Assembly (NCBI GenBank): GCA_019745315.1
Contig: JAIETH010000001.1
Coordinates: forward strand, 13,049 to 77,048
Origin: Patescibacteria group bacterium
GTDB lineage: Bacteria; Patescibacteriota; Minisyncoccia; Phycocordibacterales; UBA918
Reading direction: 5' to 3'
DNA: 64,000 nucleotides
Shown here: positions 22,733 through 64,000 of the stretch, one piece after another
How positions within the stretch are numbered: position 1 is the stretch's first letter
How the letters are laid out: every line of letters begins with the position of its first letter
Translations under genes and position numbers: made by a program
The notes under the pieces: generated by a model
Databases searched by the model: none
The model's input: only the letters and a program-made list of their open reading frames with translations
What the model was told of the DNA's origin: nothing

Positions 22733-22877
22733 ATCCTCTTTTGGGTTTGGGTTGACGGAGCCGAACCTTGTGGGGGAACTTCTCCTTTTTTACGGTAGCA
22801 CAGAAGTTTTTATTAATAAAGACACAAACAAAAACACTCAGTGCTGAGTGCGTGTAAAGTGTTTTTGTTGGGGGGCT

Positions 22878-31219: not shown

Positions 31220-31666
31220 ATGAATTCTTTTCTTAAATATCTAATACCAACTGTATTCGCTTTCTTCTTCATTGTTACGCCACTTTTGACTGTATACGCA
31301 ACAACTACACCCGGAGGCGGAAGTGTGACTCCTCAGGGTGGAAGCGTTACGCCCCAGGGAGGATCAGTAACACCTGGGGGGGGGAGCGTGACTCGCGGCA
31401 ATACTCAAATTCTCAACCCTCTCGGCAGTAGTGATATAACGCAATTTTTTCTTAAAATAATGCAGATTCTTATACTTTTCGCAGTACCTATTATTGTATT
31501 CTTCATTATTCTTTCAGGATTTAAGTACGTGATGGCTCGTGGAAACGCTGCGCAGATAGAAACGGCGACACGGTCTCTTACCTGGGCAGTTATTGGAGGT
31601 GTGCTTATTTTGGGAGCAGAGATTATTCTTCAGGTTATTCAAGGAACTGTAGCGGCGCTCAGATAA
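31220..31666 (+). CDS. VirB2/TrbC-like small membrane protein with an N-terminal GG(S)VTPQ tandem repeat
   Basis: Signal/TM helix. Four GGGSVTPQ repeats. C-terminal helix-loop-helix shared with the four downstream paralogs. Confidence 0.5.
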   Translation: MNSFLKYLIPTVFAFFFIVTPLLTVYATTTPGGGSVTPQGGSVTPQGGSVTPGGGSVTRGNTQILNPLGSSDITQFFLKIMQILILFAVPIIVFFIILSGFKYVMARGNAAQIETATRSLTWAVIGGVLILGAEIILQVIQGTVAALR

Positions 31667-32925: not shown

Positions 32926-33210
32926 ATGATTGCATTTGCAAATGGAGCAGAACTTACCTACGCTCGAACTCTTCTTCAGAAGATAGAAAGCGCAATTCTT
33001 TTTCCGCTCATCACCTTAATGATGGGGGTTGCGGTACTTGTATTCTTGTACGGGATGTATGAAATGATTCAAGGGGCAGAGAGTGGAGAGGCTCGGGAGA
33101 ATGGACGGAAACACATTCTCTTTGGAGTGATAGGATTTGTCGTTATGCTATCTGCTCTCGCAATTCTACGCATTGCCGCGAATACTGTTGGAGTGACCGT
33201 GCCAAACTAG
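32926..33210 (+). CDS. VirB2/TrbC-like small membrane protein (divergent paralog)
   Basis: Same two-helix architecture (MMGVAVLVFLYGMYEMIQGAESGEARENGRKHILFGVIGFVVMLSA). Confidence 0.45.
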   Translation: MIAFANGAELTYARTLLQKIESAILFPLITLMMGVAVLVFLYGMYEMIQGAESGEARENGRKHILFGVIGFVVMLSALAILRIAANTVGVTVPN

Positions 33211-33291
33211 TTTTTAAAAAACGCAGAAAAAGAAAAAGCCCCGCACGCGAGTGTGGGGCTTGTGCGTCGCAAGGACGCTGGATCATGCTTC

Positions 33292-33810
33292 CTAGAAGCA
33301 TGATCCGTTTTGGTTGGGTCTCCGCCCCCTGCTGGCGAAGACCTGGACATCTTCTCCTGGCTGATTCCGTTTGAATCTCACGGAGTAGTCAGGACGACCA
33401 GAGATCGGAGGAGCCCAGGAGCCATCGGGGCCGAGTGTCTCCACTCGAACTCGTGGATCGAGGCTCCATGTCAGACATGTTCCGGGGATTCCCGAGATTT
33501 CCCTCGACCAGCGGTCGAAGGATGCCATCAGAGGAATTCGTTCCCCTGTTTCTGCCGGCTGCACTGCCTGCGGAGATGTTGCTCCGGGCGTTGCCGTTTG
33601 CGGGGTTGACGGGGGTGAGGTTCTGCTGAGTGCGAATACGAGAACGCCCACCACCATCAGCACCAGTGCCAGCATGATGCCGACCATCAACCACTTGTTA
33701 ACACCTCTCTTCTTGGGAGTGGTCGCCACAGGTGGATGGTGTGCCTCTGGAGCATGTGCTGCTGCAGGGGCGGATGGAGCAGGTATTGGTGCTGCGACCG
33801 GATCAGCCAT
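33292..33810 (-). CDS. Pro/Ala-rich membrane-anchored protein on a GC-rich island
   Basis: PAPSAPAAAHAPEAHHPP low-complexity N-terminus and one TM helix. GC-rich relative to flanks. Confidence 0.35.
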   Translation of the reverse strand: MADPVAAPIPAPSAPAAAHAPEAHHPPVATTPKKRGVNKWLMVGIMLALVLMVVGVLVFALSRTSPPSTPQTATPGATSPQAVQPAETGERIPLMASFDRWSREISGIPGTCLTWSLDPRVRVETLGPDGSWAPPISGRPDYSVRFKRNQPGEDVQVFASRGRRPNQNGSCF

Positions 33811-34007
33811 TTTGGATTCTCCTAGCTGTTGATGTACAAGGTGGCGGCGATGATCGACGCCCCCAGTCCGTAGGATATGAGTTTGGCGATCCTGAAGATC
33901 GCCTGCGATTCCTGGACGATCTTGGGGTCCTTGGCTCTCGAAGAGCCGCTGGTCCTTGAGGGTGCAGGGGAGGGTGCGTGTGCCAAGGTTCTATTCCTTT
34001 TCTTGGG

Positions 34008-34985
34008 TTAGCGCTTGCCCAGGCTTGCTAGCACAGCGGCCAGTGCCTGATGAGCGTTGCCTTCTACTTCGAATATTGTTTTGCTCACGACGCCATACTG
34101 AAGTAGGGCGGCGTTTGCCGCATCCTTCGGAGCGATGCCGGCGGCAGCAAGCTTGGCTGCTGTGGCATCGATCAGGGCGGAACGCGCGCTATTCGAAAGC
34201 GCCGTTTGATACTGCGCTTCGTAGTCCGCGTCAGCTACCACGGCTTCGATAAAGTCGATACCGTAGAGACTTTCGTAGGTGAGCGGCAATCCTCGGCTGG
34301 CGATGGATCGCGCTTCCTGCGAATTCGCGGCAATCGCATTGAAGGTCTCGAATCTGTTTCTGAGACCGCGATTGAGTTCGTCGAGTGCTCCGCGTGCATC
34401 TTGCGCATCTCGATGAGATATCGCCTCCGAGAGATAGCCGCTGCCAATGGCAACGAGCCCTTCTCGGATGATGCTGTCGTCTGCGGCGATGTACCGAGGC
34501 AATAATTTGGGGTCAGCTCGGTACATGTATACTTGCTTTGTCTTGATCGCGGGACCATTTTTTGCAGCGAAGTCCTCCTCCTCTTCCACTGCAACCGCTC
34601 GGAGATTGATGTAATTTCCGAGCTTTCTTTGTTTATAGGGTGCGCAGAAAGACAGGCCCGTTTCATAAACTTCCATATTTGCGTACGGGTCGTCGTCCGT
34701 AGGTTTCCCCAAAACATTGATGGTTATCAGTCCACAATACTCGGGTACTGAAACCATGAACCAGGGAAGGGTGCTGCCGACACAGACAATCCATGCCGAA
34801 ACAGCAAATGGGACTCCCCAATTCACCGGAGCGAGAAGGGATCCCACGAAGACAAAGAAGCAAAAGGAAACGACCCATGCTACCACAGCGATGAGCATAT
34901 CAATCTCCAGACTTGCCTCTTCTGCGAGGTATGTCAGACCTTGGTTCTGTGCCATTTCGGGCTCCTCTGGGTTTTGTCCTGTCAA
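34008..34985 (-). CDS. SPFH/band-7-like membrane protein
   Basis: N-terminal TM helices followed by a domain with stomatin/prohibitin-like composition. GC-rich relative to the host. Confidence 0.45.
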   Translation of the reverse strand: MTGQNPEEPEMAQNQGLTYLAEEASLEIDMLIAVVAWVVSFCFFVFVGSLLAPVNWGVPFAVSAWIVCVGSTLPWFMVSVPEYCGLITINVLGKPTDDDPYANMEVYETGLSFCAPYKQRKLGNYINLRAVAVEEEEDFAAKNGPAIKTKQVYMYRADPKLLPRYIAADDSIIREGLVAIGSGYLSEAISHRDAQDARGALDELNRGLRNRFETFNAIAANSQEARSIASRGLPLTYESLYGIDFIEAVVADADYEAQYQTALSNSARSALIDATAAKLAAAGIAPKDAANAALLQYGVVSKTIFEVEGNAHQALAAVLASLGKR

Positions 34986-35318
34986 AGGACTGTTGGGTTG
35001 AGGTGCTTCCGCGATGCGGCCACCAGTGGATACATTATATCACTATATATATAAATGTCAAGTTTTGTGTGGCTAAAATAGGGCTCTAATGAAGGGGGTT
35101 TGGGGGAGGAGAGAGGGTTTGGTCACAGATAAATTTCTTAGGACTTAGTCACATATAATTATAAAAACTTTTGTGGTCACGAGTCACTAACTTTTTTGCT
35201 CCAAGTTTTCGCAAAAAACTAAGTGCTCCCGACCCCAGCACGCAGTTGCTGAAGCAACATTGCTGCGCTTCCCACAAAAGCACAAAACCTGCCGCAGGGC
35301 AGGTCTTTGTGTCTTTTG

Positions 35319-49039: not shown

Positions 49040-49945
49040 GTGTGCGAAACTCCTCGCATACCTCAGCGATTGAATGGTATTATTTTAATACGTTATATGG
49101 GCTACCGAGCGGTTATCTTTTCTTTTTTTCTCTTCCTGGTACCACTTGTATTTGTGTATGGTGCGCCGATAGTGCCTCCTCCTCCTTCAAGCGGTCTTGG
49201 ATATAGGGCATGTGATCTGTTGACACTCGTTAACAACGTCATGAAGTTTCTCATATATATAAGTGCGTTTATCGCTGTGCTTCTTGTTGCGTTTGCAGGA
49301 TTTAAGTCAGTGATTGGGGGAGAATCCGCAGAATTAGGAAGTCTCGCTGTTGCGATTGGTGGTGGAATTCTCCTCATGCTTTCTGGGTGGCTCATAGTGG
49401 ATACGGTCATAAAAGTATTTACCGGAGGACGTTTGGGGCCATGGAATTCAATACAGTGTGTTGAGAATTACGAAATAAGCAGGACTACATTTGTTCCTTT
49501 GAGTGGTACAGGTGGCGGAGGTGGGGTGATACCAGGACTTGCTCCCCAGGGAAGAGGAAACTGTTCAGCAGAAGCTCTTACTCCGGTTTTCGGGAGTCAG
49601 GCGGCAACTTTTTCTTGTATCGCACAGCGAGAAAGCGGGTGTAATCCTGGGCTACCGAGCGGTGTCGATGTGGGCGCAGATGGAAACGCGGTTTCGTTTG
49701 GTTTATATCAGATAAATATCAGCGCACACCCAATGGTGTGTGATGGTCAGAGGGTAAACTGTCCTGCTGCATTTTCTTCGATGTATACAGCTCAAAATAG
49801 AGGTGTGAGAGTGGTGAACCAAGAGTTATATATACAGTGTCGTGCGCTTGCGACAAATGCGAACTGTAATTCACAAACAGCACAGTCATTGTTTCAGCGT
49901 AATGGATTGAATCCGTGGCGAGCGCAGAATAATAGGTGCTTCTAG
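49040..49945 (+). CDS. VirB2/TrbC-like pilin domain fused to a lytic-transglycosylase-like (SLT) domain
   Basis: N-terminal block ACDLLTLVNNVMKFLIYISAF...two TM helices is shared with 51058. The C-terminus has AQRESGCNPG...VSFGLYQINIS (the E-S...GLMQ SLT motif). Confidence 0.5.
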   Translation: MCETPRIPQRLNGIILIRYMGYRAVIFSFFLFLVPLVFVYGAPIVPPPPSSGLGYRACDLLTLVNNVMKFLIYISAFIAVLLVAFAGFKSVIGGESAELGSLAVAIGGGILLMLSGWLIVDTVIKVFTGGRLGPWNSIQCVENYEISRTTFVPLSGTGGGGGVIPGLAPQGRGNCSAEALTPVFGSQAATFSCIAQRESGCNPGLPSGVDVGADGNAVSFGLYQINISAHPMVCDGQRVNCPAAFSSMYTAQNRGVRVVNQELYIQCRALATNANCNSQTAQSLFQRNGLNPWRAQNNRCF

Positions 49946-50545: not shown

Positions 50546-51070
50546 ATGATGAAATATCTCCTCATTGTGTTTTTTGGTCTTATGGCAGTCGGAGCAGCTG
50601 GCTATGGAATTTATATCGCAGCTACACAAGACCTGACTACTGAAGAGCCTCCTCTATCAGAGCCTATTACCGTCTTTCCTGTTCCGGCACCCGATACCGT
50701 ACAAGGCGGTTTTATGTTAGTTACAACACGAGATGAAGATAAGGTGCGGGTTGCTGATGTGCGTAAAAATCCTCTTGAGGTACAGATAGATCCTGACACA
50801 GGGAAGCCAATTTATACTCTTGTGTCTTCGCGGTGGGTAGATGGTAGGGGGGAAGGGTATGGACTGGCATTTGATGAGGGCTTTGGACTCTTTGTGGTAA
50901 CGGTGCATGAAGACTCATCTGGTACACAGCAGATACTTGCTGAACGTGAATTGCTTCGACGACTTGAAGTTTCCACTAAAGATTTTTGTCGATTACAATT
51001 TTATCTAACTGTCGTAGAGGCAGACGGATCATGGAGTGAGAGCACGAAACCTTCGCTATGCAATTTGTAA
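50546..51070 (+). CDS. membrane-anchored hypothetical protein (paralog of 49961-50512)
   Basis: N-terminal TM helix. C-terminal …DFCRLQFYLTVV… block. Confidence 0.4.
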   Translation: MMKYLLIVFFGLMAVGAAGYGIYIAATQDLTTEEPPLSEPITVFPVPAPDTVQGGFMLVTTRDEDKVRVADVRKNPLEVQIDPDTGKPIYTLVSSRWVDGRGEGYGLAFDEGFGLFVVTVHEDSSGTQQILAERELLRRLEVSTKDFCRLQFYLTVVEADGSWSESTKPSLCNL

Positions 51071-51939
51071 AACCTCTTAAAAAGATAGCCCAGATTGGTA
51101 TCTATGTCGGCGTACTTTTCTGTGTGCCACTATTGATGTTGGCTGCTGAGCGTCTTGTGCCCTGTGAGGGGAATGCATGTCGGGCATGTGATGTACGAAC
51201 GCTCTTAAAGAAGCTGATCGATTTCATGATCATGCTTGGCGGGTTTATCGCAACTATCCTTCTTATGTTTGCAGGGTTTACCATGGTCACCGCTGCAGGA
51301 AATATGGGGAAGATTGAGGAGGCAAAAAGTACCTTTAAAGCAGTCATTATCGGTATGTTTATCATACTTACGGGCTACTTAATTGTAGATACCTTCATGA
51401 AAACATTTGTAACGGGAAGTGTTTTTAATGGAGCTCCTTGGGATAACATAACCTGCGTACCAAACCCTTTAATTGAACGAACTCCTCCTGCTGCCATTGG
51501 AGGAGGTGGAACTGTGGTTGGAGGAGGTTCGACTGTTGGAGCTACTCCTGGGGATGTGGCTGCTTTGCAGCAAGCAGGCGTCACTGTTCAGTCGGGTGTC
51601 AATATGAGTCAGGTGAGTGGAAGTAGAATAACTCAAGCTGTTGAGATGGCGAGCGCATGTAGTATCGCAAATGGGGGAACTGCAACATCTAATGCGTGCG
51701 GTGTTCAAATTAGCAGTGGGTATAGAGCTGGCAACGGTCAGTCAAATCACGGAAATGGTACTGCGGTGGATATTTCTGGACGTAACGAAACATTTAATAG
51801 GTGGATGAATAGCCAAACAGCAGCACCATCTGCCTTCGGAGGATATAGGACAATTAATACAGGGCAGGGAGCATGTACCTGGCATCCTAACGAGGGTGGG
51901 GGCGGATATCACTGGCATTGCTCAGATACAGGAAGGTAG
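51058..51939 (+). CDS. VirB2/TrbC-like pilin domain fused to a peptidase M15-like (D-Ala-D-Ala/L-Ala-D-Glu peptidase) domain
   Basis: N-terminal block ACDVRTLLKKLIDFMIMLGGFIA...two TM helices. The C-terminus has SNHGNGTAVDISG and GGGYHWHC (the H-x6-D ... H zinc triad of M15). Confidence 0.5.
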   Translation: MQFVKPLKKIAQIGIYVGVLFCVPLLMLAAERLVPCEGNACRACDVRTLLKKLIDFMIMLGGFIATILLMFAGFTMVTAAGNMGKIEEAKSTFKAVIIGMFIILTGYLIVDTFMKTFVTGSVFNGAPWDNITCVPNPLIERTPPAAIGGGGTVVGGGSTVGATPGDVAALQQAGVTVQSGVNMSQVSGSRITQAVEMASACSIANGGTATSNACGVQISSGYRAGNGQSNHGNGTAVDISGRNETFNRWMNSQTAAPSAFGGYRTINTGQGACTWHPNEGGGGYHWHCSDTGR

Positions 51940-52002: not shown

Positions 52003-52076
52003 GGGCGATTAGTTTAGTGGTAGAACATAGGTCTCCAAAACCTACGGTGGGGGTTCGATTCCCTCATCGCCCGCCA
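52003..52076 (+). tRNA. tRNA-Trp (anticodon CCA), CCA-3' encoded
   Basis: GGGCGAT...TAGGT-CTCCAAA-ACCTA...GGGGGTTCGATTCCCTC-ATCGCCC-G-CCA. Confidence 0.9.
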
Positions 52077-52181
52077 AGTCGTGCTAGCACGAGACGCTAG
52101 GAATAAAACTTATAATTCAAATTTAAGTGACAAGTTTTATTTAAAATGAAATTATAAAATATTAACTTTAATAGACTATTT

Positions 52182-52676
52182 ATGAATATAATTAATTTCC
52201 TAGATTTTACAGACCCGCTCGTAATAATGTTTACGGTAGATTTGTTTATTGCACTGGTTATCGGTTTTATAATTGGCGCAGAAAGAGAATCGCGAGGTAA
52301 AGACGCTGGAATCAGTACACATACATTTGTAATTGTTGGCGCGATGTTGTTTACGTTTCTTTCAATGGTTGTTGATCCAGCCTCTAAATCTCGGATTGCT
52401 GCTCAAATTGTTACTGGTATTGGTTTCTTGGGAGCGGGTATTATTCTCAAAGATGGAGCACAAGTTAGAAATTTAACTACTGCTGCTAGTATTTGGTTTG
52501 CCGGAGCAATCGGAATGGCTATTGGTTTTGATTATCATGAAATTGCTATTATTGCTGCGATAGCATCAGTTTGTATTCCTCGCATCCCTCATATCAGTAG
52601 CAAAAAAACGAGGCAAGGCAGTAAAAAAAATACTAACGAGGAAGAAAAAGACGCAATGCAATTTAGTGACGATTAA
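52182..52676 (+). CDS. mgtC: MgtC/SapB-family membrane protein
   Basis: LVIGFIIGAERESRGKDAGISTHTFVIVGAMLF is the MgtC signature region. Confidence 0.75.
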   Translation: MNIINFLDFTDPLVIMFTVDLFIALVIGFIIGAERESRGKDAGISTHTFVIVGAMLFTFLSMVVDPASKSRIAAQIVTGIGFLGAGIILKDGAQVRNLTTAASIWFAGAIGMAIGFDYHEIAIIAAIASVCIPRIPHISSKKTRQGSKKNTNEEEKDAMQFSDD

Positions 52677-52763
52677 TAGTATTGCATGAGCGCCAATTGG
52701 CGAATATTTGTAATTAATTAGAATAGCCAAAATAACATTAGATCAACTAAGAAAAAGCCGGAT

Positions 52764-53444
52764 ATGAAATCTATTATTACTAACCCATGGTTTGAGCGAT
52801 TAGTACTTGCTATCATCGTGGCCAATGCTATTACTCTTGGACTTGAAACCTATCCCGCCATTATGTTGGCGTACGGTAGCACTTTAATGAAGCTAGATTT
52901 GGTTTTTGTCGGGTTCTTTGTAATTGAGCTTTCGTTGCGTCTTTCAGTTTTAGGTCGCACGTTTTGGCAAGACGGATGGAACTGGTTTGATGCGACAGTG
53001 GTTGGGTTAACGGTTCTTCCATTTTTAGGAGTGAGCGGGATTGGTAACGTATCGGCTTTTCGAGCAGTCCGGCTTTTACGTGTTCTGAGCATTATTCCAT
53101 CTTTTAGACGGGTACTCGCGGGTATCGGCCGAGCACTTTCAGGAAGCTTTGCAGTAATGGCAGTATTAGCTGTAATTCTTTATGTATATGCAGTTGTGTC
53201 GGTAAAACTTTTTCGTGATGTAAGTCCTGAAAAATTTGCCGATCTAGGAACGTCGTTTTTTACCTACTTTCAAATTATGACCCTCGATGCTTGGAGCGAC
53301 ATCGTACTTCCTATTATGGCTGTGTACTGGTGGGCGGGAATGTTTTTTGTAAGTTTTATTGTAACAGCTGTATTTATCTTACTGAGTATCCTCATCGGTG
53401 TAGCTAGTAACGCAATGAATGAAAATGACACTGAGAAAAAGTAA
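52764..53444 (+). CDS. voltage-gated ion channel, BacNaV-like (single 6TM repeat)
   Basis: S4 with Arg every third residue (FRAVRLLRVLSIIPSFRRV). Pore loop FTYFQIMTLDAWSDIV, compared with TLESWS(M) in NaChBac/NavAb. Confidence 0.7.
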   Translation: MKSIITNPWFERLVLAIIVANAITLGLETYPAIMLAYGSTLMKLDLVFVGFFVIELSLRLSVLGRTFWQDGWNWFDATVVGLTVLPFLGVSGIGNVSAFRAVRLLRVLSIIPSFRRVLAGIGRALSGSFAVMAVLAVILYVYAVVSVKLFRDVSPEKFADLGTSFFTYFQIMTLDAWSDIVLPIMAVYWWAGMFFVSFIVTAVFILLSILIGVASNAMNENDTEKK

Positions 53445-53537
53445 TTATTTATTGAACGTATTTAAAGTTTGTATGTTTGATGCAAACTAACTTTTTTATT
53501 ATTTAAAGTAAGTTGAGAATTAAAACTAGAAATAATC

Positions 53538-53668
53538 TACCTTTTCTGTTTAAAAGTTCCATCTTTGAGCAAAAACTTAATACACCTCCTAATATCTATA
53601 TCTTCGACTTCAAAGTTAACGCCCTGCCCAAGCAAGAATGCATTTAATCTTTTACGCCCTACACGTAC
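53538..53668 (-). pseudogene. 3'-terminal remnant of a second serine recombinase gene
   Basis: Minus-strand translation ...AFLLGQGVNFEVEDIDIRRCIKFLLKDGTFKQKR* aligns with the C-terminus of the intact recombinase (…SVLGQELNFEIGDIDIKPYIKFLLKDGTIEEKR…). The rest of the gene is absent. Confidence 0.55.
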
Positions 53669-53689
53669 AAAATTGTATATCCAAATCTA

Positions 53690-54025
53690 TTAATAATTTA
53701 TCGCTTTTCGTTTTTTAGGTTCGGGTAACTCATCAAACGTAATTTGTATAAGTTTACTTAACCAAACATGATCTTCAATCTTTTCACTATCAATTTGAAT
53801 TGAAGGCTTTGCCCCAGGACAGGCAATGCCTTCAATATAATCGTTACCTAGATATTTTTGTCCTCCGACTGTCCTTTTTATAAACAATGTATCGCTACAA
53901 ATAAGACCTACTACTTTTCCTTCTTTATACAATGCATATTCGCCAAACATTTTCTTTACAGTGATAGCTCTTAGGTCAACCAGTTGATCTAAAATGTATT
54001 CAACTGTGCTGGGGCCAGTTGCCAT
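53690..54025 (-). CDS. TfoX N-terminal-domain-like protein
   Basis: LRAITVKKMFGEYALYKEGKVVGLICSDTLFIK matches the TfoX_N pattern (MFGG.glY...la.v.dd.LylK). Confidence 0.5.
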   Translation of the reverse strand: MATGPSTVEYILDQLVDLRAITVKKMFGEYALYKEGKVVGLICSDTLFIKRTVGGQKYLGNDYIEGIACPGAKPSIQIDSEKIEDHVWLSKLIQITFDELPEPKKRKAINY

Positions 54026-54031
54026 GTTTTT

Positions 54032-54445
54032 TTAAAATAAACCCAATGCAAAACTAATTACTCCACCCATAAAACCCACAGTTGCAACCGCAGCAATAAT
54101 GTCTGCAATAATTGGTTTAAAGTTATTGAAAAGATGAGATGTGGCGTACCAGTATGTACTCGTCATAATAGAAATCATGCCTCCGATAAATCCTCCAATT
54201 AAAACACCTTCCGCTAGGGTATTTGTTTCTGTCCACTGTGTGAATAGGATGGTGAGAAGTAACGAATATGCGACACAGGAAATGAAAAGCCAGATTAAAC
54301 TCGATTCAGCGTCACTTTTCTTAAAACCTTGAGCAGAGGTCATGTTATTTGCCATGAACTTGCCGAGTGCGAATTCAAATACAAACCACCCGATAATGAA
54401 ATAGCCAACTGCACCCAGGGCTGTTGCGGTAATTATTTCTAGCAT
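54032..54445 (-). CDS. four-helix membrane protein
   Basis: Hydrophobic 137-aa ORF. Confidence 0.4.
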   Translation of the reverse strand: MLEIITATALGAVGYFIIGWFVFEFALGKFMANNMTSAQGFKKSDAESSLIWLFISCVAYSLLLTILFTQWTETNTLAEGVLIGGFIGGMISIMTSTYWYATSHLFNNFKPIIADIIAAVATVGFMGGVISFALGLF

Positions 54446-54486
54446 ATACGAATTATTATATACTTAATTTAATGGTCTTATCTTGT

Positions 54487-55809
54487 TTAATGCAATGATA
54501 TCTGTTTATTTTGCAATAGTATTTCACTTTTAAAACACGACATAATCTCTCGCTTCTCTTCAATCGTCCCGTCTTTAAGTAAAAATTTTATATACGGCTT
54601 AATATCTATATCTCCAATCTCAAAGTTAAGCTCCTGACCGAGCACAGACGCTTCAAATTTCTTATACCTCGTTACTTCAGCCGCGATCTGTTTTTTAACC
54701 GTTAAGTCATGTATGGCTATCGTATCGACTAGACTTTGCAGTTGCTTAATGAGTTCTGTCTCTGAAACATAACCACACGGACAATGTTTATCTATTGCTC
54801 TAGTGCAACCGTAGTAGACATGAACGTTCATACCACCACCTTTCAGCTTTTTGTATTTCTCACTAGCACTAATACCAGATCCGCATAGACCACATTTCAT
54901 AATGCGAGTGAAGGCAAATTCATGGTCTGCTCGTGTCTTTAGCTCATTTCCCTTAACTTGAGCTTGTACCAGATCAAAAAGTTCTTTGGTGATAAGTGGT
55001 GCATGTTTACCCTGATACCAATTGCCACTGTTTTTAGGATATTCAAAGACTCCGTAGTAGAAGTGGTTATCAAGGATTTTGTAGATGTTACCGAGGCTCA
55101 AATGCTTCTTGCTCGGCAACGCTCTGAAATTCAGCTCGAATTTAAGCCAGTTGTATACTTTCCTGCCACTCCACTTTTCATACGCTACTTTTTCAAATAC
55201 CTGTTTAATCACCTGTCCTCTCTCAGGATCAATGTATGTCTCACACTTCCTATCCATGCGTTTTTCTTTTAGATAACCAGTTGGTGCAGGTGCCGGCCAT
55301 AAACCCATTTCAACTCTGGTCTTTAGTCCACGCTTCACATTAATACTTTTGTTGTCGTTTTCTAGCTTGGCTTGAGAACACAGAATCATCAAGAGAAACT
55401 TCTCACTCGGTGTGTTCGTAAATGTTTGTCCGTATGTGCGTATTTCACGGAGTAGATGTTGATCCATGAGATCAACGAGTGAACCGAGGTCACCTGCATT
55501 TCGACTCAATCGGTCTGGATGCCAGACAATAATGCCGTTGAAGCGTTCTCGTCTAATGTCCTCAAGTATTTCTTTAAAAACTGGTCGTTGCCCTGAGTCC
55601 TTTGCAGAATGTGACTCACGCCTAATCTCTACAATCTCCAACCCTTCACGTTCTGCAATTTCACACATCTCCTTAACTTGAGAGTCGATGGAAAGAGCTT
55701 GTTTCTCATCAGACTCAGTACTTTTGCGTGCGTATAGTAGGTACTTAACGGGCACTTTTGGTACATCAGTCTTTACTCCAAAGTTGTTCATTACTTGCGT
55801 TTCCATCAT
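54487..55809 (-). CDS. large serine recombinase (resolvase catalytic domain + recombinase domain + zinc ribbon + coiled coil)
   Basis: YARKSTESDEKQALSIDSQ catalytic Ser region. GIIVWHPDRLSRN. Recombinase-domain zinc ribbon CGLCGS...C..CGY. 440 aa. Confidence 0.85.
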   Translation of the reverse strand: MMETQVMNNFGVKTDVPKVPVKYLLYARKSTESDEKQALSIDSQVKEMCEIAEREGLEIVEIRRESHSAKDSGQRPVFKEILEDIRRERFNGIIVWHPDRLSRNAGDLGSLVDLMDQHLLREIRTYGQTFTNTPSEKFLLMILCSQAKLENDNKSINVKRGLKTRVEMGLWPAPAPTGYLKEKRMDRKCETYIDPERGQVIKQVFEKVAYEKWSGRKVYNWLKFELNFRALPSKKHLSLGNIYKILDNHFYYGVFEYPKNSGNWYQGKHAPLITKELFDLVQAQVKGNELKTRADHEFAFTRIMKCGLCGSGISASEKYKKLKGGGMNVHVYYGCTRAIDKHCPCGYVSETELIKQLQSLVDTIAIHDLTVKKQIAAEVTRYKKFEASVLGQELNFEIGDIDIKPYIKFLLKDGTIEEKREIMSCFKSEILLQNKQISLH

Positions 55810-56002
55810 TAATTAATGACAGACCTGCACGAGATGCATAGCTATGCAGACTAAGAAATACGTCACATACTCGCTGATTGTCCTTAGCAAAAGTGCAAAC
55901 ATGCGATAGAGTGAAATCGGTAGCAAAATCTGCTATTATTGTTCTCGAACAATTGAATATTAGACCTAACCCCTTAAGTCTCTTGAGGATATGGTCGCAA
56001 AT

Positions 56003-56145
56003 CCGTCCAAAGTAAAAAGCTCCTAATCAGGGCTACTTTGGACGGTCATATCGGGAAACTGGTATGGGCATATCTCACGGGGTATGTCGGCTTGGTTAGG
56101 AGCTTTTTGCTATCTGATCAAATTATTAAAAACCGTCCAAATAAT
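56003..56145. promoter_or_regulatory. nested inverted repeats/operator-like motif cluster in the divergent intergenic region next to the recombinase gene
   Basis: IR1 ccgtccaaagta (56003-56014) / tactttggacgg (56035-56046). IR2 aaaagctcctaa (56015-56026) / ttaggagctttt (56096-56107). A third ccgtccaaa copy lies at 56133-56141, directly before the ATG at 56146. Confidence 0.4.
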
Positions 56146-56646
56146 ATGAATACAATCAAAAAATGTCCTAAGTGCCAAAAAGAGGTCGATGCAAAAGCAA
56201 CTAAGTGTCCGTACTGCCAGTCAGACACAAGAAGCTGGGTAAGACAGCATCCAATCGGAGTGTTCCTGCTCTTTCTCATCTTTTTACCAATCGTTATCAG
56301 TCAGATCAATGCTGAACCAACACCAGTGCAGACTCCAGCTCAACAAATTCATGAAGTGAAGTTTCAAAGTGCAAGAATTCTTGCAAAGTCACACATAGAG
56401 AAAATTCCCCTTACTTCACCATCGACAGCAAAATACAATCCACCGACTACAAAAGTTGACCCAACAGATCCGAATCTTTTTGAAGTTTCGTCATACATAG
56501 ACAGTCAAAACGGATTTGGTGCAATGGTTCGTACATATTGGTCAATGAAGCTTAAGTTCAAAGGTGAAGATACTCAAGAATCAGTCGAAACAGATGCAAA
56601 CTGGGAAATCGTTGAGTTCACTTTTGACGGCGAAAAGATTAAGTAG
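56146..56646 (+). CDS. zinc-ribbon membrane protein
   Basis: CPKCQKEVDAKATKCPYCQ zinc ribbon followed by a TM helix. Start trimmed to MNTIKK at 56146. Confidence 0.4.
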   Translation: MNTIKKCPKCQKEVDAKATKCPYCQSDTRSWVRQHPIGVFLLFLIFLPIVISQINAEPTPVQTPAQQIHEVKFQSARILAKSHIEKIPLTSPSTAKYNPPTTKVDPTDPNLFEVSSYIDSQNGFGAMVRTYWSMKLKFKGEDTQESVETDANWEIVEFTFDGEKIK

Positions 56647-57109
56647 TTTTAGAAGCGTCTTTCTGCGGAATCCATCTATCCAGCATCTCTCTCGCTCTCT
56701 TTACTGCATTAGCAGCTTTTTCTGCACTGTCACGGTTTAGCTTTTCTTCCATCTTTCTCTTGTTCTGATAATGGGTCTCAATTCGTTTTTGCTCAAATTG
56801 ATCATTTGAGGCATCTCGATGTCTGAATGGCATTTTGTATGCTTCGTGCCTATGACTTAACCAGTACTTTGTGTATGCAGCATCTTTATTTTTGATGCCA
56901 GTAAGGACATTGCTTTCTGCCACATCATTTACCAAACCCACACCAAATCCCATAGCCTTATTCACCTCATTGAAGCTGTCTTCGCTTTCATTCATCCACC
57001 GATAAAACGTCTGACGAGAAATGCCAAACTTTTCACAAACCACTTGAATAATAGGAGTACGTTCTAGCTCTTCTAAAATCTTACTCCATAACACTTTAGT
57101 TTTCTTCAT
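56639..57109 (-). CDS. HTH protein resembling a phage terminase small subunit
   Basis: KILEELERTPIIQVVCEKFGISRQTFYRWMNE is a terminase-small/transposase-type HTH. A basic coiled-coil C-terminus follows. Confidence 0.4.
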   Translation of the reverse strand: MKKTKVLWSKILEELERTPIIQVVCEKFGISRQTFYRWMNESEDSFNEVNKAMGFGVGLVNDVAESNVLTGIKNKDAAYTKYWLSHRHEAYKMPFRHRDASNDQFEQKRIETHYQNKRKMEEKLNRDSAEKAANAVKRAREMLDRWIPQKDASKTT

Positions 57110-58532
57110 GTGACTGGACCTTTACTTTGAGACCAGTCAGCTTCTCATAGCGATTAATAATAAGATCGCAGAAGGCTGGTTCAAGTTCACAACCGTACAC
57201 TCTTCGACCAAGAGCGTTACCTGCGATTAAGGTACTTCCAGAGCCAAGGAAACTATCGAGAATGATGTCGTTCATCTTAGTACAGCGTTTGATCGCTTTC
57301 TCATGAAGACATGGTGGTTTAGACGTAGCGTGTTTATAGTCTTTGGCGGCTAAACGCTTGGCGGTCCAGATATCTATAAAGTCGTCAACCTCGCTAAGTA
57401 AGTTGTTGCCTGTGCTAAGTTCTTTATTCATCACTTCGTTAAGGTTGGTAATCGGTTCTGCCAAATGTGGTTTGCCACGAGTTCCGTATACCACAGGCTC
57501 GTATACCTTATTGAACGCCACGCCAGGTACGGGGTTCTGGTTATTTTTCAACCATAAACACACTCGCTTATTGCTGATTCCGAGTTGCCTGTATATCTCC
57601 TGTACAACCCCGATAAATACTTGATCGCACCAGTAGAAAACATGAGTATCTTTATTTGATACCGCTAAGGCTGACTCCATACTATCTTTGAGAAACTTCT
57701 GGTATTCAGCAAACGTTCGTTTATCTTTTACATTTCCTCCATAGTCTTGCTTTCCTCCAATACCGCCGTTGTAGTCGATGTTGATGTTATAGACGGGGTC
57801 AGAGTAAATCATTGAGACTTTCTCATTGCCAAGGAGTCGCTTTAGAGTTTCTGGCTTAGTAGAGTCGCCGCAAATAACCCTATGCTTGCCGAGAGTAATA
57901 AGGTCACCAAGTTTCGTCTTTGGCTCTACAATCTTCTTTAATTCTTTTTCTTCGTCAAAACTATCGTCGGCAACCTCTGTCTCTTTGTCGTAGATGTCTG
58001 ACAACTCAATATCGTCAAAACCACCAAACTCAAGTGCACCCATTTCAAATCCTTTGAGTAGATCGAAATCCCAGTCGCCACCAAGCTTGTTAGAAGCGAT
58101 GAGATACTCGTCTGATTCTTCTTTAGTTAGCTTACGGTTCGGAACTCTTACATCAATAATTTCATCACCACGATTAAGAAGCTGAAGGGCCTTGATTCGT
58201 TGATGGCCTGCAAGGATAGAGCCATTAGCATCTATGGCAGGTATTTCTACTAAGTTGTATTTCTTCAGGCTTCGCTTCAAGTCCGACATTTGTTTGTCGG
58301 TAATAGAGCGAGGGTTAACGTCTTGAGGGATAAGATCATTAACTCGCCTTTGGGCTGTTGCCCATATAAGTTTTTTCATACCTACACTACGTTTACTATT
58401 TTTAAGTTTGGCTGCGCCCAGTTTCAGGGGGCAATTGTTATCGCAGTCTTTACGTGTGGTATGAAATGTATCTATAACAAGTTTATCAATTTGATAAACT
58501 ATGTCAATGGGTTTATACTGGGGATATGTCAA
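57096..58532 (-). CDS. ParB-like nuclease domain fused to a beta-class N4/N6 DNA methyltransferase
   Basis: ParB/Srx motif EIPAIDANGSILAGHQRIKAL. MTase motif IV SDPVYNI (DPPY-like). Motif I DSFLGSGST lies near the C-terminus (beta-class order). Confidence 0.75.
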   Translation of the reverse strand: MTYPQYKPIDIVYQIDKLVIDTFHTTRKDCDNNCPLKLGAAKLKNSKRSVGMKKLIWATAQRRVNDLIPQDVNPRSITDKQMSDLKRSLKKYNLVEIPAIDANGSILAGHQRIKALQLLNRGDEIIDVRVPNRKLTKEESDEYLIASNKLGGDWDFDLLKGFEMGALEFGGFDDIELSDIYDKETEVADDSFDEEKELKKIVEPKTKLGDLITLGKHRVICGDSTKPETLKRLLGNEKVSMIYSDPVYNINIDYNGGIGGKQDYGGNVKDKRTFAEYQKFLKDSMESALAVSNKDTHVFYWCDQVFIGVVQEIYRQLGISNKRVCLWLKNNQNPVPGVAFNKVYEPVVYGTRGKPHLAEPITNLNEVMNKELSTGNNLLSEVDDFIDIWTAKRLAAKDYKHATSKPPCLHEKAIKRCTKMNDIILDSFLGSGSTLIAGNALGRRVYGCELEPAFCDLIINRYEKLTGLKVKVQSHEEN

Positions 58533-58783
58533 AGAAACTATCTTTTAAGCAACTCGACATACAAATTGGTCAGAAAATTAAAGGGTGTCGTCAGAAAGCA
58601 AATTACTCGCAAACCAATCTTGCAGAGTTGTTGAAATATGAATCACCAACAGCAATTTCATTAATTGAAAGTGGTGAAAGAAGCCTAAAAATTCACGATC
58701 TTATTATTCTCTGTCAACTCTTTGATAAAGATTATAATCACTTTATTGGTCGTCCGTCTGAACATAAAAATAGGATAATTTAG
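58526..58783 (+). CDS. XRE-family helix-turn-helix regulator
   Basis: QIGQKIKGCRQKANYSQTNLAELLKYESPTAISLIESGER is a Cro/C1-type HTH. Confidence 0.6.
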   Translation: MSKKLSFKQLDIQIGQKIKGCRQKANYSQTNLAELLKYESPTAISLIESGERSLKIHDLIILCQLFDKDYNHFIGRPSEHKNRII

Positions 58784-58844
58784 TAGGACTACTCACATAC
58801 CAGATAAGTTCGAGATACTAAGCTAAAAATGGTAAAATCGAGTT

Positions 58845-61800
58845 GTGATCGCCAATGTTAACTGGAACAACTTTAGGGTAAAATTCGACAACCAAAACGA
58901 GGTCGCTTTTGAACGTCTCTGTTATCTCTTGTTTTGCAAAGAATTTAACAAAAACCTCGGAATATTCAGATTCAAAAACCATGCTGGAATTGAGACCAAT
59001 CCCGTTGAACATGAAGGTAAGATTATTGGTTGGCAAGCAAAATTTTATAGCACAGCACTATCGCAACATACTGCCGATTTCAAAGAATCTATCGATAAAA
59101 CTAAGGAAAGACATCCTGAAGTAAATAAGATTATCTTCTACACGAATCAGGAGTTTGGTCAGGATAAAATGAAGACGGATCCGCGATATAAGAAAGATCT
59201 AGAGACTCATGCAAAATCGAATGGAGTAGAAATTGAATGGAGGACAGGAAGCTACTTTGAGTCACTGTTTGTATCTGAAGACAACTTCAGCATTGCACAG
59301 CATTTCTTTGACCTTAAGCCTGGCATCATTGATTCTATTATTGAACTGCAAAAGTACACCGACCAAGTATTGCAACCGATCCGGTCGCAGATTGCTTTCG
59401 GAGAGAATTCTGTCAAACTTGATAGGTCTTCAATCGTCGGAGGAATCAGAGATACAGCCAAGAACTTTCCGATTGTCGTTCTAAGTGGTGGTGCAGGGGT
59501 TGGTAAAACAGCAGTCGTAAAGGATCTATACGAAGCAGTTAAAGAATCGACACCGTACCTTGTCTTTAAAGCCACGCAATTCAAGAGTGCAACACATATA
59601 AATCAGCTTTTCAAGGATTATGGAGAGATAACAGCAACAGAATTTATTGCTGAACATAAAGATATCAATGAAAAATATGTGGTCTTTGATTCATCTGAGA
59701 GACTTTCAGAGATTGAGGATCAGGATGTATTTAGAATGTTTCTATCCGAACTGGTCACAAATGGGTGGACTGTCATTTTTACAGTACGGCATAGTTACCT
59801 TGATGATCTACGATTTCAGTTAAAGGAATTTTATGGAACCAATTTCGCATCTCTTAATATTCCATATCTCTCAACAGAAGAAGTAGAAAAAATTTCCAAA
59901 GAATTTAAATTTGAAATCCCAAAAAATGCCAGACTGGCAAATCTGCTATTAACGCCACTTTATCTGAGCGAATATTTGCAGGATTATAGCGAGAGTAGAG
60001 CAAACATTAGCTATAATGATTTCCGTGAAACTATCTGGAAGAAACAGATTCAGAACTCAAGTTATCAATCAAATAACTTGCATAGGCGCAGAGAGGAATG
60101 TTTTCTGAAGGTTGCGAAGCAGCGAGCAAATGAAGGTGGTTTCTTTGTAAAAACTGATGAATCAGATCACGAGGCACTTCAAAAGTTAGGGGCAAGCGAA
60201 ATCATAAAATTTGATTCAAAAGCTGGAGGCTATTTCATAACCCATGACGTGTACGAGGAATGGGCGTTGGATATACTCATTGAGAGAGCCTTCAATAGTG
60301 CATCAGACTACCAGAGTTTTTATGCTGAAATTGGTAACTCGCTTCCAATTCGACGTGCTTTTAGGAATTGGTTATCTGATAAGCTCTTTGCTAATGATGA
60401 CAAGGCAAAGAAGCTGATTGAATTTACTGTCCAAGATTCCAGTTTTGAAAATCACTGGAAAGATGAAGTTTTAGTCTCGGTACTTCTTTCCGATTACTCA
60501 GAAGTGTTTTTTGAACTCTTTGAAAAAGAACTACTTACAGATCCTGAGCGAGTAGTTTCAGTCGTAAGCGCTACTGAAGGAATTAGAGTATTTGATATTA
60601 ATTACCAAATTGAGAAGAAACTTATACATAGAATTCTCTTCCTTCTACGCATTGCTTGTAAGACAGTTGATGAGGACTTTTTGAGTCGTCTGGGTTTGAG
60701 TCGTGCAAACGCATTATCGCTAGAAACGATTTTTACTACTCCAAAGGGCAGTGGGTGGTCTTCAACAATTGCTTTCATCAATAAGCATAAAGATAAGTTC
60801 AAGCTCATGTACATGCACGTCATCCTTCCTGTTCTGGACGATTGGAATCGAAGTCATCAGCAAGGTGAGACTACAAAGAATGCAAGCCAGATTGCTCTTT
60901 TTTACTACAATACTCTAACAGCACAAAAAGATTTTTACTTTGGTTCAAGAGATAGTACTAAAGAACCACTAATTAGAACCATTTTAAATGGATCTGGCGA
61001 GATAAAAGAAGAGTTAAGTAAGATTATCAAAGCTGTTGTATTAACAAAAGACACTACACACCGAAGCAGGTATTATGAGTTAGTAAATACAATACTCTCA
61101 TCGATCCTAGATAGTACAGTAGCGGCAAGGAATCTGCCGAAGGAAGTTATAAAGCTTGCGAATCTGTTTTGGTTTGATAATTCTCCTGAGGATGAGTACT
61201 CTCACTTAAACTATCGAAATGATCTTGAACAGTATTACGGTCTTACGTCGGGTCATCTCGATTATTATCCAGCCAGTGCTTATCAAACCCCAATAGGAAC
61301 ATTGCTCCAAACTGCTCCGCAAGAAACAGTAAATTTTATTCTTGCGTTCACAAATAAAGTAATTGAATATTTTTCTAAATCGGAATTAGGAAACGAAGCG
61401 GAGTACATTGACGTTATCATTGACGAAGTTGGAACAACCGTTAAACAATATATTGGTCACCGTATTTGGAACATATATCGTGGCACCCAGACGAATCCTC
61501 CTTTACTAGAGTCCATTCACATGGCTTTAGAAAGTTGGTTACTTTGGTTAGCAAAGACATATGATGTAGAATTGGTAGAAAACTGGTGTTTTTATTTAAT
61601 TAAACATTCCCGATCTACATCAATTACGGCAATAGTTGTAAGTGTGGTTCTTGCTGAACCAACAAAGCTTTTCAATGTTGCAAAGATTCTTTTAAAGAAT
61701 AAGGATTTCTTCTTCTTTGATCTCTCTCGACTGCAGTTAGATAGATCACATGCAAAGTTTTCCTACTCAATGGCTCATGATCCTGGAGGGATATTTAGAA

Positions 61801-63680
61801 ACGAACGATTGCAAACTTGTGAAGATAAGCATCGTGAACGCTACCTTGAAAATCAAGCTTTGAATTACCAATTATTTTCTGACGAAGGTGAAAAAGAAGA
61901 TTTGGCAAAAGGTAGGCAAGAGGCCGTATGGAAGATACTAGACGAACATTATGCAAAGTTACCAAACAAGAAGAAAGAAACTAACAGCGATAAAACGTGG
62001 AGACTTACCTTGGCCAGAATGGATCGTCGAAAGATGAAAATCTCTACAGAGGAGAAAGACAAACAAATTTTTATAAGCTTTAATCCTGAAATTGATCCTG
62101 AACTGCGACAGTACAGCGAAAATGCTCAAGCTAAGAGTTCAGAGGCATTGAAATATACGCCTTTACAATTATGGTCTCACAATAAGTTTGAGAAGAATGA
62201 GGATGCTAAAAAGTATCTTCAATATGAAGATGGTCACGATTTGACACTTTCTGAAACAAAGACAATTCTTGAAAAATTAACTATCGAGAAAGACGAAGGG
62301 AGCCAATTTAGGTTGTTCTATCATTCAGTTCCAGCTTACGTTTGTTCTGTACTTCTCAGAGATTATGCAGAAGAGCTAAGTCCAGAAGACGCAGAATTCT
62401 GTAAAGATATTGTGCTTGACTATGCTTCCATGCCTTTACGGGAAGGTTACAGCTATCAGATTGGAGATGGATTGGAAGCAGCAGTAAATATTCTTCCTCT
62501 TCTAATCAAAAAGTTCCCTAAGGACGCTGCAAAAATTAAAGAAGTGTTATTATTGATCCTCTTTGATTCTTATCCAATCGGTACGAGTCAGCGAGTTTCT
62601 GATTATGCAGTCGCATCCATTTTGCAATATTTATGGCCAGAAAGTCCTAATGATGCTAATGCCATACTGTATGGATATTTGTTACTTAAACCAAAATTTG
62701 ATCAGATAAGTGAATCTATCAGGGAAGAGAACCGAAAGAATCAGAAACGTGATTTTTCTAGAATTCCAGTGCTGAAACGATTCAAGAAAGAATGTAAAAC
62801 TGGAATTAAGAAAGTTGTTTCCAGTCAGCTTTCTTATGGAAATATACAAAATGCCGCTGAAATAGATCCTGACGTACTCGTGACCGCTTTTCTATTAGTA
62901 CCATTAAAAACTACCGACGCTGATCATAAGAAGTTTTTGCGAGACATAAGTCCGACTCTCATTGAGGCATTTAAGAATGAGGACAGAGAAGAACGCCTCG
63001 ACTATGTTCTTGAACACAGGTTCTTGGATAAATTTGCTCACTTCGTACTTTACTCACCCAAAGAAGAAATTGAGGCGTATGTAGAACCATTCATCGAGCT
63101 TATTGGCGACTTCAGACGAAGGAAGGATGTGGCTGATGTATTCGAAGCGTTTATTATTGCGGAAGATGCAATAAACCAGTACGAGGAATTCTGGATTGTG
63201 TGGCAAGTTTTCTATCCAAAGATAGTAGAACTCTGCTCAGATGAACACCACCTCAGGTATTCAGAGAATGTCGTCTATAAGTATCTCTTGGCTGTACAGT
63301 GGAATAAGGCTGCTAAAGAGTGGCATTCTCTGAAAGATAGAGAGCGGGCTTTCTTCAAGAAAGTCTCTGAGGAGATGGGTGGGAACGCACCTGTTTTATA
63401 TGCACTTGCAAAACTTCTAAACGATATTGGAAGTAACTTTGCCACTGACGGTATCGCTTGGATTAGCGGTTTACTACAAAAGAATTCAAATCTTTCTCAT
63501 AAAGAATTGGAAGTAAACACCGTTTACTATCTAGAAAATCTTGTACGAAGCTATATTCTCAAGAATCGTCAAAAGATTAAAACTGACCCACAGTTGAAAA
63601 AGCAGATCCTTGTCATTTTAGATTTTCTCCTAGAAAAAGCTTCGGTAACTGCCTACCTATTGAGAGAAGATATTTTATAA
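58845..63680 (+). CDS. 1611-aa STAND-type P-loop NTPase with N-terminal Mrr-like PD-(D/E)xK nuclease motif and long C-terminal helical repeat region (Avs-like candidate anti-phage protein)
   Basis: N-terminus AFERLCYLLF...HAGIETNPVEHEGKIIGWQAKFY parallels Mrr_cat (FE.L...LL...DGGIDI...VQCKRY). Walker A VVLSGGAGVGKTAV. Walker B-like YVVFDSSERL. About 1200 aa of Leu/Glu/Lys-rich predicted helical repeats. Confidence 0.7.
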   Translation: MIANVNWNNFRVKFDNQNEVAFERLCYLLFCKEFNKNLGIFRFKNHAGIETNPVEHEGKIIGWQAKFYSTALSQHTADFKESIDKTKERHPEVNKIIFYTNQEFGQDKMKTDPRYKKDLETHAKSNGVEIEWRTGSYFESLFVSEDNFSIAQHFFDLKPGIIDSIIELQKYTDQVLQPIRSQIAFGENSVKLDRSSIVGGIRDTAKNFPIVVLSGGAGVGKTAVVKDLYEAVKESTPYLVFKATQFKSATHINQLFKDYGEITATEFIAEHKDINEKYVVFDSSERLSEIEDQDVFRMFLSELVTNGWTVIFTVRHSYLDDLRFQLKEFYGTNFASLNIPYLSTEEVEKISKEFKFEIPKNARLANLLLTPLYLSEYLQDYSESRANISYNDFRETIWKKQIQNSSYQSNNLHRRREECFLKVAKQRANEGGFFVKTDESDHEALQKLGASEIIKFDSKAGGYFITHDVYEEWALDILIERAFNSASDYQSFYAEIGNSLPIRRAFRNWLSDKLFANDDKAKKLIEFTVQDSSFENHWKDEVLVSVLLSDYSEVFFELFEKELLTDPERVVSVVSATEGIRVFDINYQIEKKLIHRILFLLRIACKTVDEDFLSRLGLSRANALSLETIFTTPKGSGWSSTIAFINKHKDKFKLMYMHVILPVLDDWNRSHQQGETTKNASQIALFYYNTLTAQKDFYFGSRDSTKEPLIRTILNGSGEIKEELSKIIKAVVLTKDTTHRSRYYELVNTILSSILDSTVAARNLPKEVIKLANLFWFDNSPEDEYSHLNYRNDLEQYYGLTSGHLDYYPASAYQTPIGTLLQTAPQETVNFILAFTNKVIEYFSKSELGNEAEYIDVIIDEVGTTVKQYIGHRIWNIYRGTQTNPPLLESIHMALESWLLWLAKTYDVELVENWCFYLIKHSRSTSITAIVVSVVLAEPTKLFNVAKILLKNKDFFFFDLSRLQLDRSHAKFSYSMAHDPGGIFRNERLQTCEDKHRERYLENQALNYQLFSDEGEKEDLAKGRQEAVWKILDEHYAKLPNKKKETNSDKTWRLTLARMDRRKMKISTEEKDKQIFISFNPEIDPELRQYSENAQAKSSEALKYTPLQLWSHNKFEKNEDAKKYLQYEDGHDLTLSETKTILEKLTIEKDEGSQFRLFYHSVPAYVCSVLLRDYAEELSPEDAEFCKDIVLDYASMPLREGYSYQIGDGLEAAVNILPLLIKKFPKDAAKIKEVLLLILFDSYPIGTSQRVSDYAVASILQYLWPESPNDANAILYGYLLLKPKFDQISESIREENRKNQKRDFSRIPVLKRFKKECKTGIKKVVSSQLSYGNIQNAAEIDPDVLVTAFLLVPLKTTDADHKKFLRDISPTLIEAFKNEDREERLDYVLEHRFLDKFAHFVLYSPKEEIEAYVEPFIELIGDFRRRKDVADVFEAFIIAEDAINQYEEFWIVWQVFYPKIVELCSDEHHLRYSENVVYKYLLAVQWNKAAKEWHSLKDRERAFFKKVSEEMGGNAPVLYALAKLLNDIGSNFATDGIAWISGLLQKNSNLSHKELEVNTVYYLENLVRSYILKNRQKIKTDPQLKKQILVILDFLLEKASVTAYLLREDIL

Positions 63681-63696
63681 AGCTAGTAGAAAAATT

Positions 63697-64000
63697 ATGA
63701 ACTACGATGAACTTATAAAAAACTGGCATGCCAAAGCAATAAACGAGGATTTCTTCTCGGGCTTTGTTTTTGAATACTTGGCATTTATTGCGTTTCTAAG
63801 GAAGCGTCTTTTTCAGGATGCTCGTGATGATAGAAGAGCTATTCAGATGTTAAAGCGTGATGAGGAAGTGAGGGCTGAATATTTGCATTGCGTTAAAGCT
63901 GACGAACATCTTACTGATGCTTGGAATAACATCATCGCCGAATTGGTGAGGGCGCAACTCGGTAATGTCAGAGGTAATGGAAACATTGTCGATGAAATTG
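63697..64000 (+). CDS. hypothetical protein, 5' part only (runs off the window)
   Basis: ATG 17 nt after the STAND stop. MNYDELIKNWHAKAINEDFFSGFVFEYLAFIAFLRKRLFQDARDD... with no stop before 64000. Confidence 0.35.
   Translation, partial: MNYDELIKNWHAKAINEDFFSGFVFEYLAFIAFLRKRLFQDARDDRRAIQMLKRDEEVRAEYLHCVKADEHLTDAWNNIIAELVRAQLGNVRGNGNIVDEI

Follow-up and report, generated by a model that had tools for sequence, protein, structure and literature searches.

Organisation of the island at tRNA-Trp

The window analysed here, a stretch of 64,000 nucleotides of a patescibacterial contig (JAIETH010000001.1), contains a tRNA-Trp(CCA) gene, a large serine recombinase gene that converges with it and, between the two, cargo genes and an orphaned recombinase 3' end (Table 1). 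From this fragment towards the tRNA the order is Ion_trans, MgtC, a hairpin, a palindrome and the tRNA gene itself, and 17 nt separate the stop codon of the fragment from that of Ion_trans. At the tRNA the G+C content falls from 0.46 to 0.36-0.38, the MgtC and Ion_trans cargo being as low as the rest of the island. Based on the layout of tRNA and palindrome, the conservation of core as opposed to cargo genes in related loci and the drop in G+C, the island starts at about position 52077 and extends past the end of the window, and the fragment is inside its cargo zone. The fragment thus lies within a tRNA-bounded island that has an element att at its left end and its right boundary beyond the window. 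Its geometry is the normal one of the family, in which the recombinase 3' end converges on cargo that abuts the att at the tRNA. Directly upstream of tRNA-Trp, the gene at 51058-51939 encodes a protein of the T4SS_pilin family (PF18895) with two diverged paralogues in the window (49115-49486 and 31415-31648). Local peaks of G+C (0.53-0.56, over a background of about 0.43) are found at 22001-23000 and 33001-35000.

Table 1. Features of the tRNA-Trp island; positions are those of the window.
Feature	Position	Strand	Basis
tRNA-Trp(CCA), putative integration target, convergent with the recombinase	52003-52076	+	
Perfect palindrome TCGTGCTAGCACGA, 2 nt past the CCA end of tRNA-Trp; putative element-borne att arm and left end of the island	52079-52092		
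Cargo on the side of the orphan tail, convergent on the fragment: MgtC (52182-52676), Ion_trans channel (52764-53444)	52182-53444	+	
3' end of a second large serine recombinase gene, orphaned (codons ~381 to stop); pseudogene fragment	53462-53660	-	In-frame match to the family C-terminus
Premature in-frame stop, TAG in place of the GAG (Glu of the EKRE motif) of relatives	53537-53539	-	
Junction, ~30 nt from the TfoX_N stop codon to the start of family homology; no match, no att-like palindrome	53661-53689		
Cargo of the intact recombinase: TfoX_N-domain protein (53690-54025), DUF1761-like membrane protein (54032-54445)	53690-54445	-	
Intact large serine recombinase (440 aa), predicted integrase of the element	54487-55809	-	Pfam Resolvase, Recombinase, Zn_ribbon_recom
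LOOT RNA, divergent from the recombinase start; conserved core	55963-56088	+	Rfam RF03000
Conserved core genes: HTH protein (56639-57109), N6_N4 DNA methylase (57096-58532)	56639-58532	-	

The intact recombinase matches PF00239, the N-terminal resolvase catalytic domain (E 2.3e-21), PF07508 (E 5e-12) and PF13408 (E 6e-7). The catalytic motif YARKST (Y26-A-R-K-S30-T) is invariant in 13 family members, and residues 24-385 align to SPbeta SprA/YokA (PDB 9dxh). The domains, the motif and this alignment together identify a large serine recombinase (LSR), which is predicted to be the attP x attB integrase of the element. The AlphaFold2 model is of low confidence (mean pLDDT 52.5) and gives rough secondary structure only, with helices predicted at 350-423.

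For comparison, related loci were collected from several sources. The family is very large: a protein search gave 8000 matches, the best 120 of which are 69-98% identical; the few matches with a source name come from Nomurabacteria and Pacebacteria. With one genome scanned per species, 500 loci were obtained, of which 80 were kept; almost all of these belong to metagenome-assembled genomes (MAGs) of the Patescibacteria group. IMG/VR contributed 13 further family loci. The comparison set consists of 94 other loci, 81 from genomes and 13 from IMG/VR. Among the 81 related genome loci the HTH protein is kept in 55 and the methylase in 54, and homologues of MgtC, Ion_trans, TfoX_N and DUF1761 are found in none. 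A metagenome scan with the Ion_trans protein returned one homologue of 78% identity in an unrelated context, with neither recombinase nor tRNA nearby, and relics of the core genes were not found elsewhere in the window. Further into the island, 58845-63680 encodes a protein of 1611 aa with weak matches to AAA/NACHT-like NTPases, a part of the island that is common with locus L081 (79% at the amino acid level); exact look-ups of this protein and of the recombinase returned no record.

LOOT RNA was identified with 79.9 bits (gathering score 46.4), 154 nt upstream of the recombinase start. It was found by cmscan in 9 of 10 related loci (L022 9709-9836, L081 8763-8895, L005 9727-9859 and others) and by a sequence-only nhmmer profile in 40 of about 90; 30 of these copies are on the strand opposite to the recombinase, 135-460 nt upstream of it, and four lie 69-100 nt downstream. 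With this recurrence beside the recombinase, LOOT looks like a core part of the serine-integrase element family. LOOT is an orphan RNA, and the integrase neighbourhood gives it a genetic context. The listed TTG start of the adjoining Zn-ribbon ORF (56038-56646) overlaps LOOT. Alignments with its homologues begin no earlier than residue ~31-37, so that translation probably starts at the ATG at 56146.

The 3' end of a second recombinase gene

A sequence-only reading of this stretch had reported that about 130 nt on the minus strand (53538-53668) parallel the C-terminus of the intact recombinase. The translation was reproduced (53537-53689 on the minus strand ends in GRKRLNAFLLGQGVNFEVEDIDIRRCIKFLLKDGTFKQKR followed by a stop), and tblastn with the intact protein matched residues 383-440 to 53653-53480 with 57% identity (E=7e-14). 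A C-terminal query reached E=3e-17 in tblastn and a profile HMM of the family C-terminus matched over its positions 18-74 of 74 (E=2e-16). The homology had also been claimed for the nucleotides, and indeed both 28-nt blocks quoted are present, at 53594-53621 and 54604-54631, within a local alignment of 115 nt (53520-53634 against codons 389-427) at ~77% identity. The score of this alignment is 40, whereas 500 dinucleotide-preserving shuffles averaged 10.5 (sd 1.2) and reached 16 at most (z=25). The position of the copy about 0.8 kb from the intact gene, and on the same strand, agrees with that reading as well.

Two points of the earlier description needed revision. The homology spans 53462-53660 rather than 53538-53668: it passes the premature stop in frame, ends at a terminal TAA (53462-53464) and fades upstream at ~53660, 30 nt from the TfoX_N stop codon. 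Moreover, the copy had been called decayed, which holds in so far as one stop disables it but overstates the damage, as the fragment of ~60 codons has no frameshifts and no indels. This single stop breaks the conserved EKRE..CF motif. Only residues ~381-440 of the LSR protein are covered, all of them after the zinc ribbon and outside the catalytic domain. The homology is significant and in the reading frame of the family, and in a tblastn search of the window with the intact protein there was no recombinase-like match other than the fragment and the intact gene. Judged by its sequence, 53462-53660 is a real but non-functional relic of a second, diverged LSR gene.

Could the fragment nevertheless have a role, as a 32-aa peptide from a TTG ORF (53537-53635), a regulatory RNA or a secondary recombination site of the integrase, the latter providing alternative C-termini or a split-integrase att? 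Its reading frame is preserved, and it follows the recombinase, DUF1761 and TfoX_N on the same strand, a gene order from which it may be transcribed. Against a function speak the stop within the conserved motif, the lack of an Rfam family match at the site, and the observation that, apart from the coding homology, no att-like palindrome, inverted repeat or other repeats tie the site to the intact gene, the longest run identical between the two being only 14 nt. An identity of this length is too short for efficient homologous deletion by RecA-dependent recombination. Furthermore, an orphan recombinase tail was found in none of the 94 other family loci, searched by tblastn with 83 C-terminal queries and with the profile HMM on six-frame translations, so the relic is idiosyncratic to this locus. 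Nothing suggests any function of the fragment, and we consider one very improbable.

Related elements co-occur in the group from which this MAG comes, and a chimeric join of reads from two such elements was therefore considered. A Logan contig from run SRR15085127 (2620 nt) is, however, 100% identical to 52478-55097 and spans both junctions, and a second run, SRR15085116, yields the side with the tRNA, MgtC and Ion_trans. With an identical contig across both junctions, an assembly artefact is hardly credible.

Ancestry of the fragment

The shared strand, the distance of 0.8 kb and the 77% nucleotide identity in the best 115 nt would all fit a local duplication of the 3' end of the resident recombinase, e.g. 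when DUF1761 and TfoX_N were inserted, with the unused copy then decaying neutrally. The pattern of the differences argues otherwise. Between fragment and resident gene they pile up at third codon positions (19, 10 and 29 at positions 1, 2 and 3; p ~0.01 in our own chi-square test on these counts). Compared with the nearest relatives, synonymous sites of the fragment are saturated (pS 0.69-0.77) while non-synonymous change is only ~0.2 (pN 0.20-0.24), and functional family members compared with each other give the same values. Genes of other genomes match the fragment as closely as the resident gene does: the identity is 69% to L001 in nucleotides and 65% to P0022 in amino acids, against 67% and 57% to the resident gene. 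The presence of a single stop and no indel in ~60 codons also argues against a neutrally decaying copy, and we regard a local duplication as improbable.

The third-position excess, the saturated synonymous sites and the equally close relatives show a separate family member: the fragment derives from a related but distinct recombinase gene and not from its neighbour. Since pS and pN are as between functional genes, selection was still acting on the parent gene during most of the divergence. The gene was disabled fairly recently, given that the fragment has acquired a single stop and no indel.

The element family in Patescibacteria

Of the 41 loci in which the recombinase is followed by a tRNA gene, all 41 have the two genes convergent, at a distance of 0.9-9.7 kb, and the tRNA is Gln in 24, Ser in 15 and Trp in two. 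In five loci, 18-35 nt of the tRNA 3' end recur at a distance of 7.5-8.5 kb on the upstream side of the recombinase, adjoining the host's own trailer; these copies delimit elements of ~10-18 kb and show the palindrome to be element-borne. In three bounded elements the LSR was the only recombinase seen, with no tyrosine integrase among the 25 most-matched of 40 Pfam families. On the strength of the convergent tRNAs, the 18-35-nt repeats and the missing tyrosine integrase, tRNA 3' ends, namely those of Gln, Ser and Trp genes, appear to be the target of this LSR family. Near a tRNA-Gln, L056 has two convergent family recombinases, 10001-11308 (+) and 17423-18697 (-), 48% identical and 6 kb apart, and in L044 (16397-16568) the element abuts a partial tRNA-Gln duplicate ~100 nt from the complete gene.

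The palindrome of the window is found in identical form at the arm after the tRNA-Ser genes of L003, L005 and L055. It is centred on CTAG, and symmetric variants occur at other loci (TCGAGCTAGCTCGA, TTGAGCTAGCTCAA, TAGAGCTAGCTCTA), with arms that change together (TCGTGC/GCACGA, TCGAGC/GCTCGA, TTGAGC/GCTCAA, TAGAGC/GCTCTA); some loci have versions with a long spacer, e.g. TCTCGTG-13 nt-CACGAG. A palindrome at the equivalent position was found in L003, L005, L008, L012, L022, L029, L031, L046, L055, L057, L068 and L069. It could be a binding arm for the integrase or the hairpin of a replacement tRNA trailer.

The three bounded elements carry S24 repressors, a large terminase, a methylase and defence-type cargo (Shedu SduA_C, ThsB TIR, an AAA protein with an S8 peptidase), the latter mostly between the recombinase and the tRNA. 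Defence-type genes were located at 11338-14707 in L022, 11583-18759 in L069 and 11317-12756 in L046. In the loci examined, an S24 repressor is accompanied by small and large terminase-like genes and by no other structural genes, a gene content which suggests that the elements are satellites or cryptic prophages. The literature was searched for CPR serine integrases that use tRNA genes, and nothing specific was found; the element family is very widespread in Patescibacteria and apparently undescribed.

Probable history of the composite island

Read from the tRNA onwards, the window has the att arm, old cargo, the tail of the old recombinase, new cargo, the new recombinase and the core. This is the order of a tandem pair of elements minus an internal deletion, and we therefore take such a history as the most likely one. 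Two related elements would have stood in tandem at tRNA-Trp, and the tRNA-proximal one would have lost everything from recombinase codon ~380 through its core and the junction att, so that the deletion fused the two into one composite island. The relic would then still be joined to its Ion_trans and MgtC cargo, the att palindrome and tRNA-Trp, with the rest of its gene and element replaced by a block of core genes, LOOT RNA, intact recombinase, DUF1761 and TfoX_N, attached by an illegitimate junction ~30 nt past the TfoX_N stop codon. That the relic represents the last ~60 codons of a second LSR member, left from the fusion of two related tRNA-Trp elements, is in our judgement likely. The composite could also have been formed in another genome and have arrived as a unit.

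Tandem elements do exist in relatives. In JAQTUL010000010.1 (L076 and L036, 2144-36200) two elements follow each other that share 84% identity over 5.7 kb, with att-like junctions (terminator, palindrome, pseudo-tRNA end) ~13 kb apart, and a further relic segment adjoins a tRNA-like 3' end not called by ARAGORN. In L068 an att relic is found internally, and between it and the tRNA lie 2.6 kb of orphan cargo. In the window, neither an internal att nor a tRNA fragment nor a second palindrome was found in 52100-64000, including the interval between the fragment and TfoX_N, so that a tandem stage is not directly visible; scans for generic repeats and for terminators were of no help. Recombination of attP with attL or attR would not be expected of a large serine integrase, a point that also speaks against a tandem stage. 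Look-ups with a host-flank protein and exact look-ups gave contigs of the same strain only, and neither a second recombinase of full length nor an empty tRNA-Trp site was found. With no internal att surviving and no strain variant, the deletion and the order of events are what we infer from the arrangement. The sequence-only reading had proposed that an earlier related element was truncated or that the locus is a recurrent integration hotspot. The distinct related recombinase, the tRNA 3' end as target and the tandem arrays and att relics of relatives lend support to this proposal, which lacks the relative with a full-length second recombinase and the internal att relic.

A serious rival to a tandem pair with subsequent deletion is a displacement in one step. 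Here the 3' portion of a related element's recombinase would have been imported together with DUF1761 and TfoX_N, by a homologous crossover inside the recombinase gene and an illegitimate one at resident codon ~381, and the fragment would be the original tail of the resident gene itself. Both this origin of the fragment and these crossovers we regard as possible but rather doubtful. A single event would suffice in place of two, and the intact gene is itself a mosaic relative to L081, with 81-90% identity over the first 540 nt and mostly 92-98% thereafter (one 90-nt block 86%). Furthermore, ~120 pairs of loci were compared whose recombinases share 78-98% identity. The homology of most pairs breaks off within 0-85 nt of the stop codon, on its upstream side, a second group of breakpoints lies ~235-320 nt before the stop, and in only seven pairs does it continue for more than 200 nt past the gene. 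L057 and L063, for example, are 98% identical up to 58 nt before the stop, and the window and L081 are 90% identical up to 31 nt before it and unrelated beyond. These breaks near the stop codon indicate that recombinase tails travel with cargo blocks. On the other side, an illegitimate join is still required, and the start of the fragment, ~180 nt before the stop, falls outside both common classes of breakpoints. Between displacement in one step and tandem insertion with deletion the sequence gives no distinction, and under either history the fragment is the scar of two related elements meeting.

Turnover of cargo in the family is very fast, as elements with recombinases 90-98% identical share nothing downstream (L057/L063, L078/L080, L058/L080, the window/L081 and ~100 other pairs). 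Their homology ends within the final 0-85 nt of the recombinase gene, or in a second class at about -245 nt, so that the C-terminal tail of the integrase is exchanged along with the cargo. The orphan tail might conceivably be a scar of general cargo exchange, with the integrase 3' end as recombination anchor and cargo blocks, often for anti-phage defence, moving with a replacement C-terminus until a rare imprecise event stacked two blocks; we hold this only tentatively.

Comparison with known systems

Several known arrangements were considered for the locus. Partition of an integrase gene as in SSV1, where attP lies inside the gene, likewise leaves an integrase piece apart from the gene at the integration site. 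This reading was rejected, since the neighbouring gene is complete and already has residues 381-440, and the fragment, 0.8 kb away, is an extra diverged tail and not a missing half. An integron-like cassette array was discarded as well, since no tyrosine recombinase was seen and no repeated sites occur between the cargo genes, and so was a shufflon-like reading.

In naturally transformable bacteria, homology-facilitated illegitimate recombination combines one homologous anchor with one illegitimate join. It would yield exactly such a duplication of two different alleles, but no microhomology was found at the junction in the window; to our knowledge the process has not been demonstrated in Patescibacteria.

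The intact gene shares its resolvase catalytic, recombinase and zinc-ribbon domains with large serine integrases of prophages, e.g. SPbeta SprA/YokA (PDB 9dxh) and TP901-1 Int. It differs from them in the short length of its product (440 aa) and in the apparent use of tRNA 3' ends with direct repeats of 18-35 nt, as opposed to a 2-bp core in a protein-coding gene.

Tandem islands at one tRNA gene are recorded in the Islander database for tyrosine-integrase islands, each member of an array having its own integrase and its own tRNA fragment (PMC4383910). The elements described here resemble Islander islands in that a tRNA gene is accompanied by a displaced 3' tRNA fragment and the element supplies a replacement tRNA 3' end. 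By the Islander definition JAQTUL010000010.1 is a tandem array, whereas the window, without a second palindrome or tRNA fragment in 52100-64000, is not.

In the tycheposons of Prochlorococcus, repeated integration at a tRNA gene pushes older elements along, fragmented integrases and stacked elements at tRNA genes have been described, and 910 of 937 elements use tyrosine recombinases (bioRxiv 10.1101/2020.12.28.424599). Stacking at a tRNA gene and a cargo-carrying, satellite-like make-up are common to both; a large serine recombinase, a patescibacterial host and a relic without a partial-tRNA marker set the present locus apart. The fragment is thus an ordinary scar of mobile-element turnover, of the kind expected in tRNA-gene islands, and its value is that of a marker, which reveals the tRNA-Trp island as a composite of two related elements. 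It has also led to the anatomy of the elements themselves, with a serine integrase, apparent targets at tRNA 3' ends, the palindrome, LOOT RNA and a cargo zone of fast turnover that begins within the last codons of the integrase. If this setting holds true, it bears on how accessory and defence genes are exchanged among CPR bacteria with reduced genomes.
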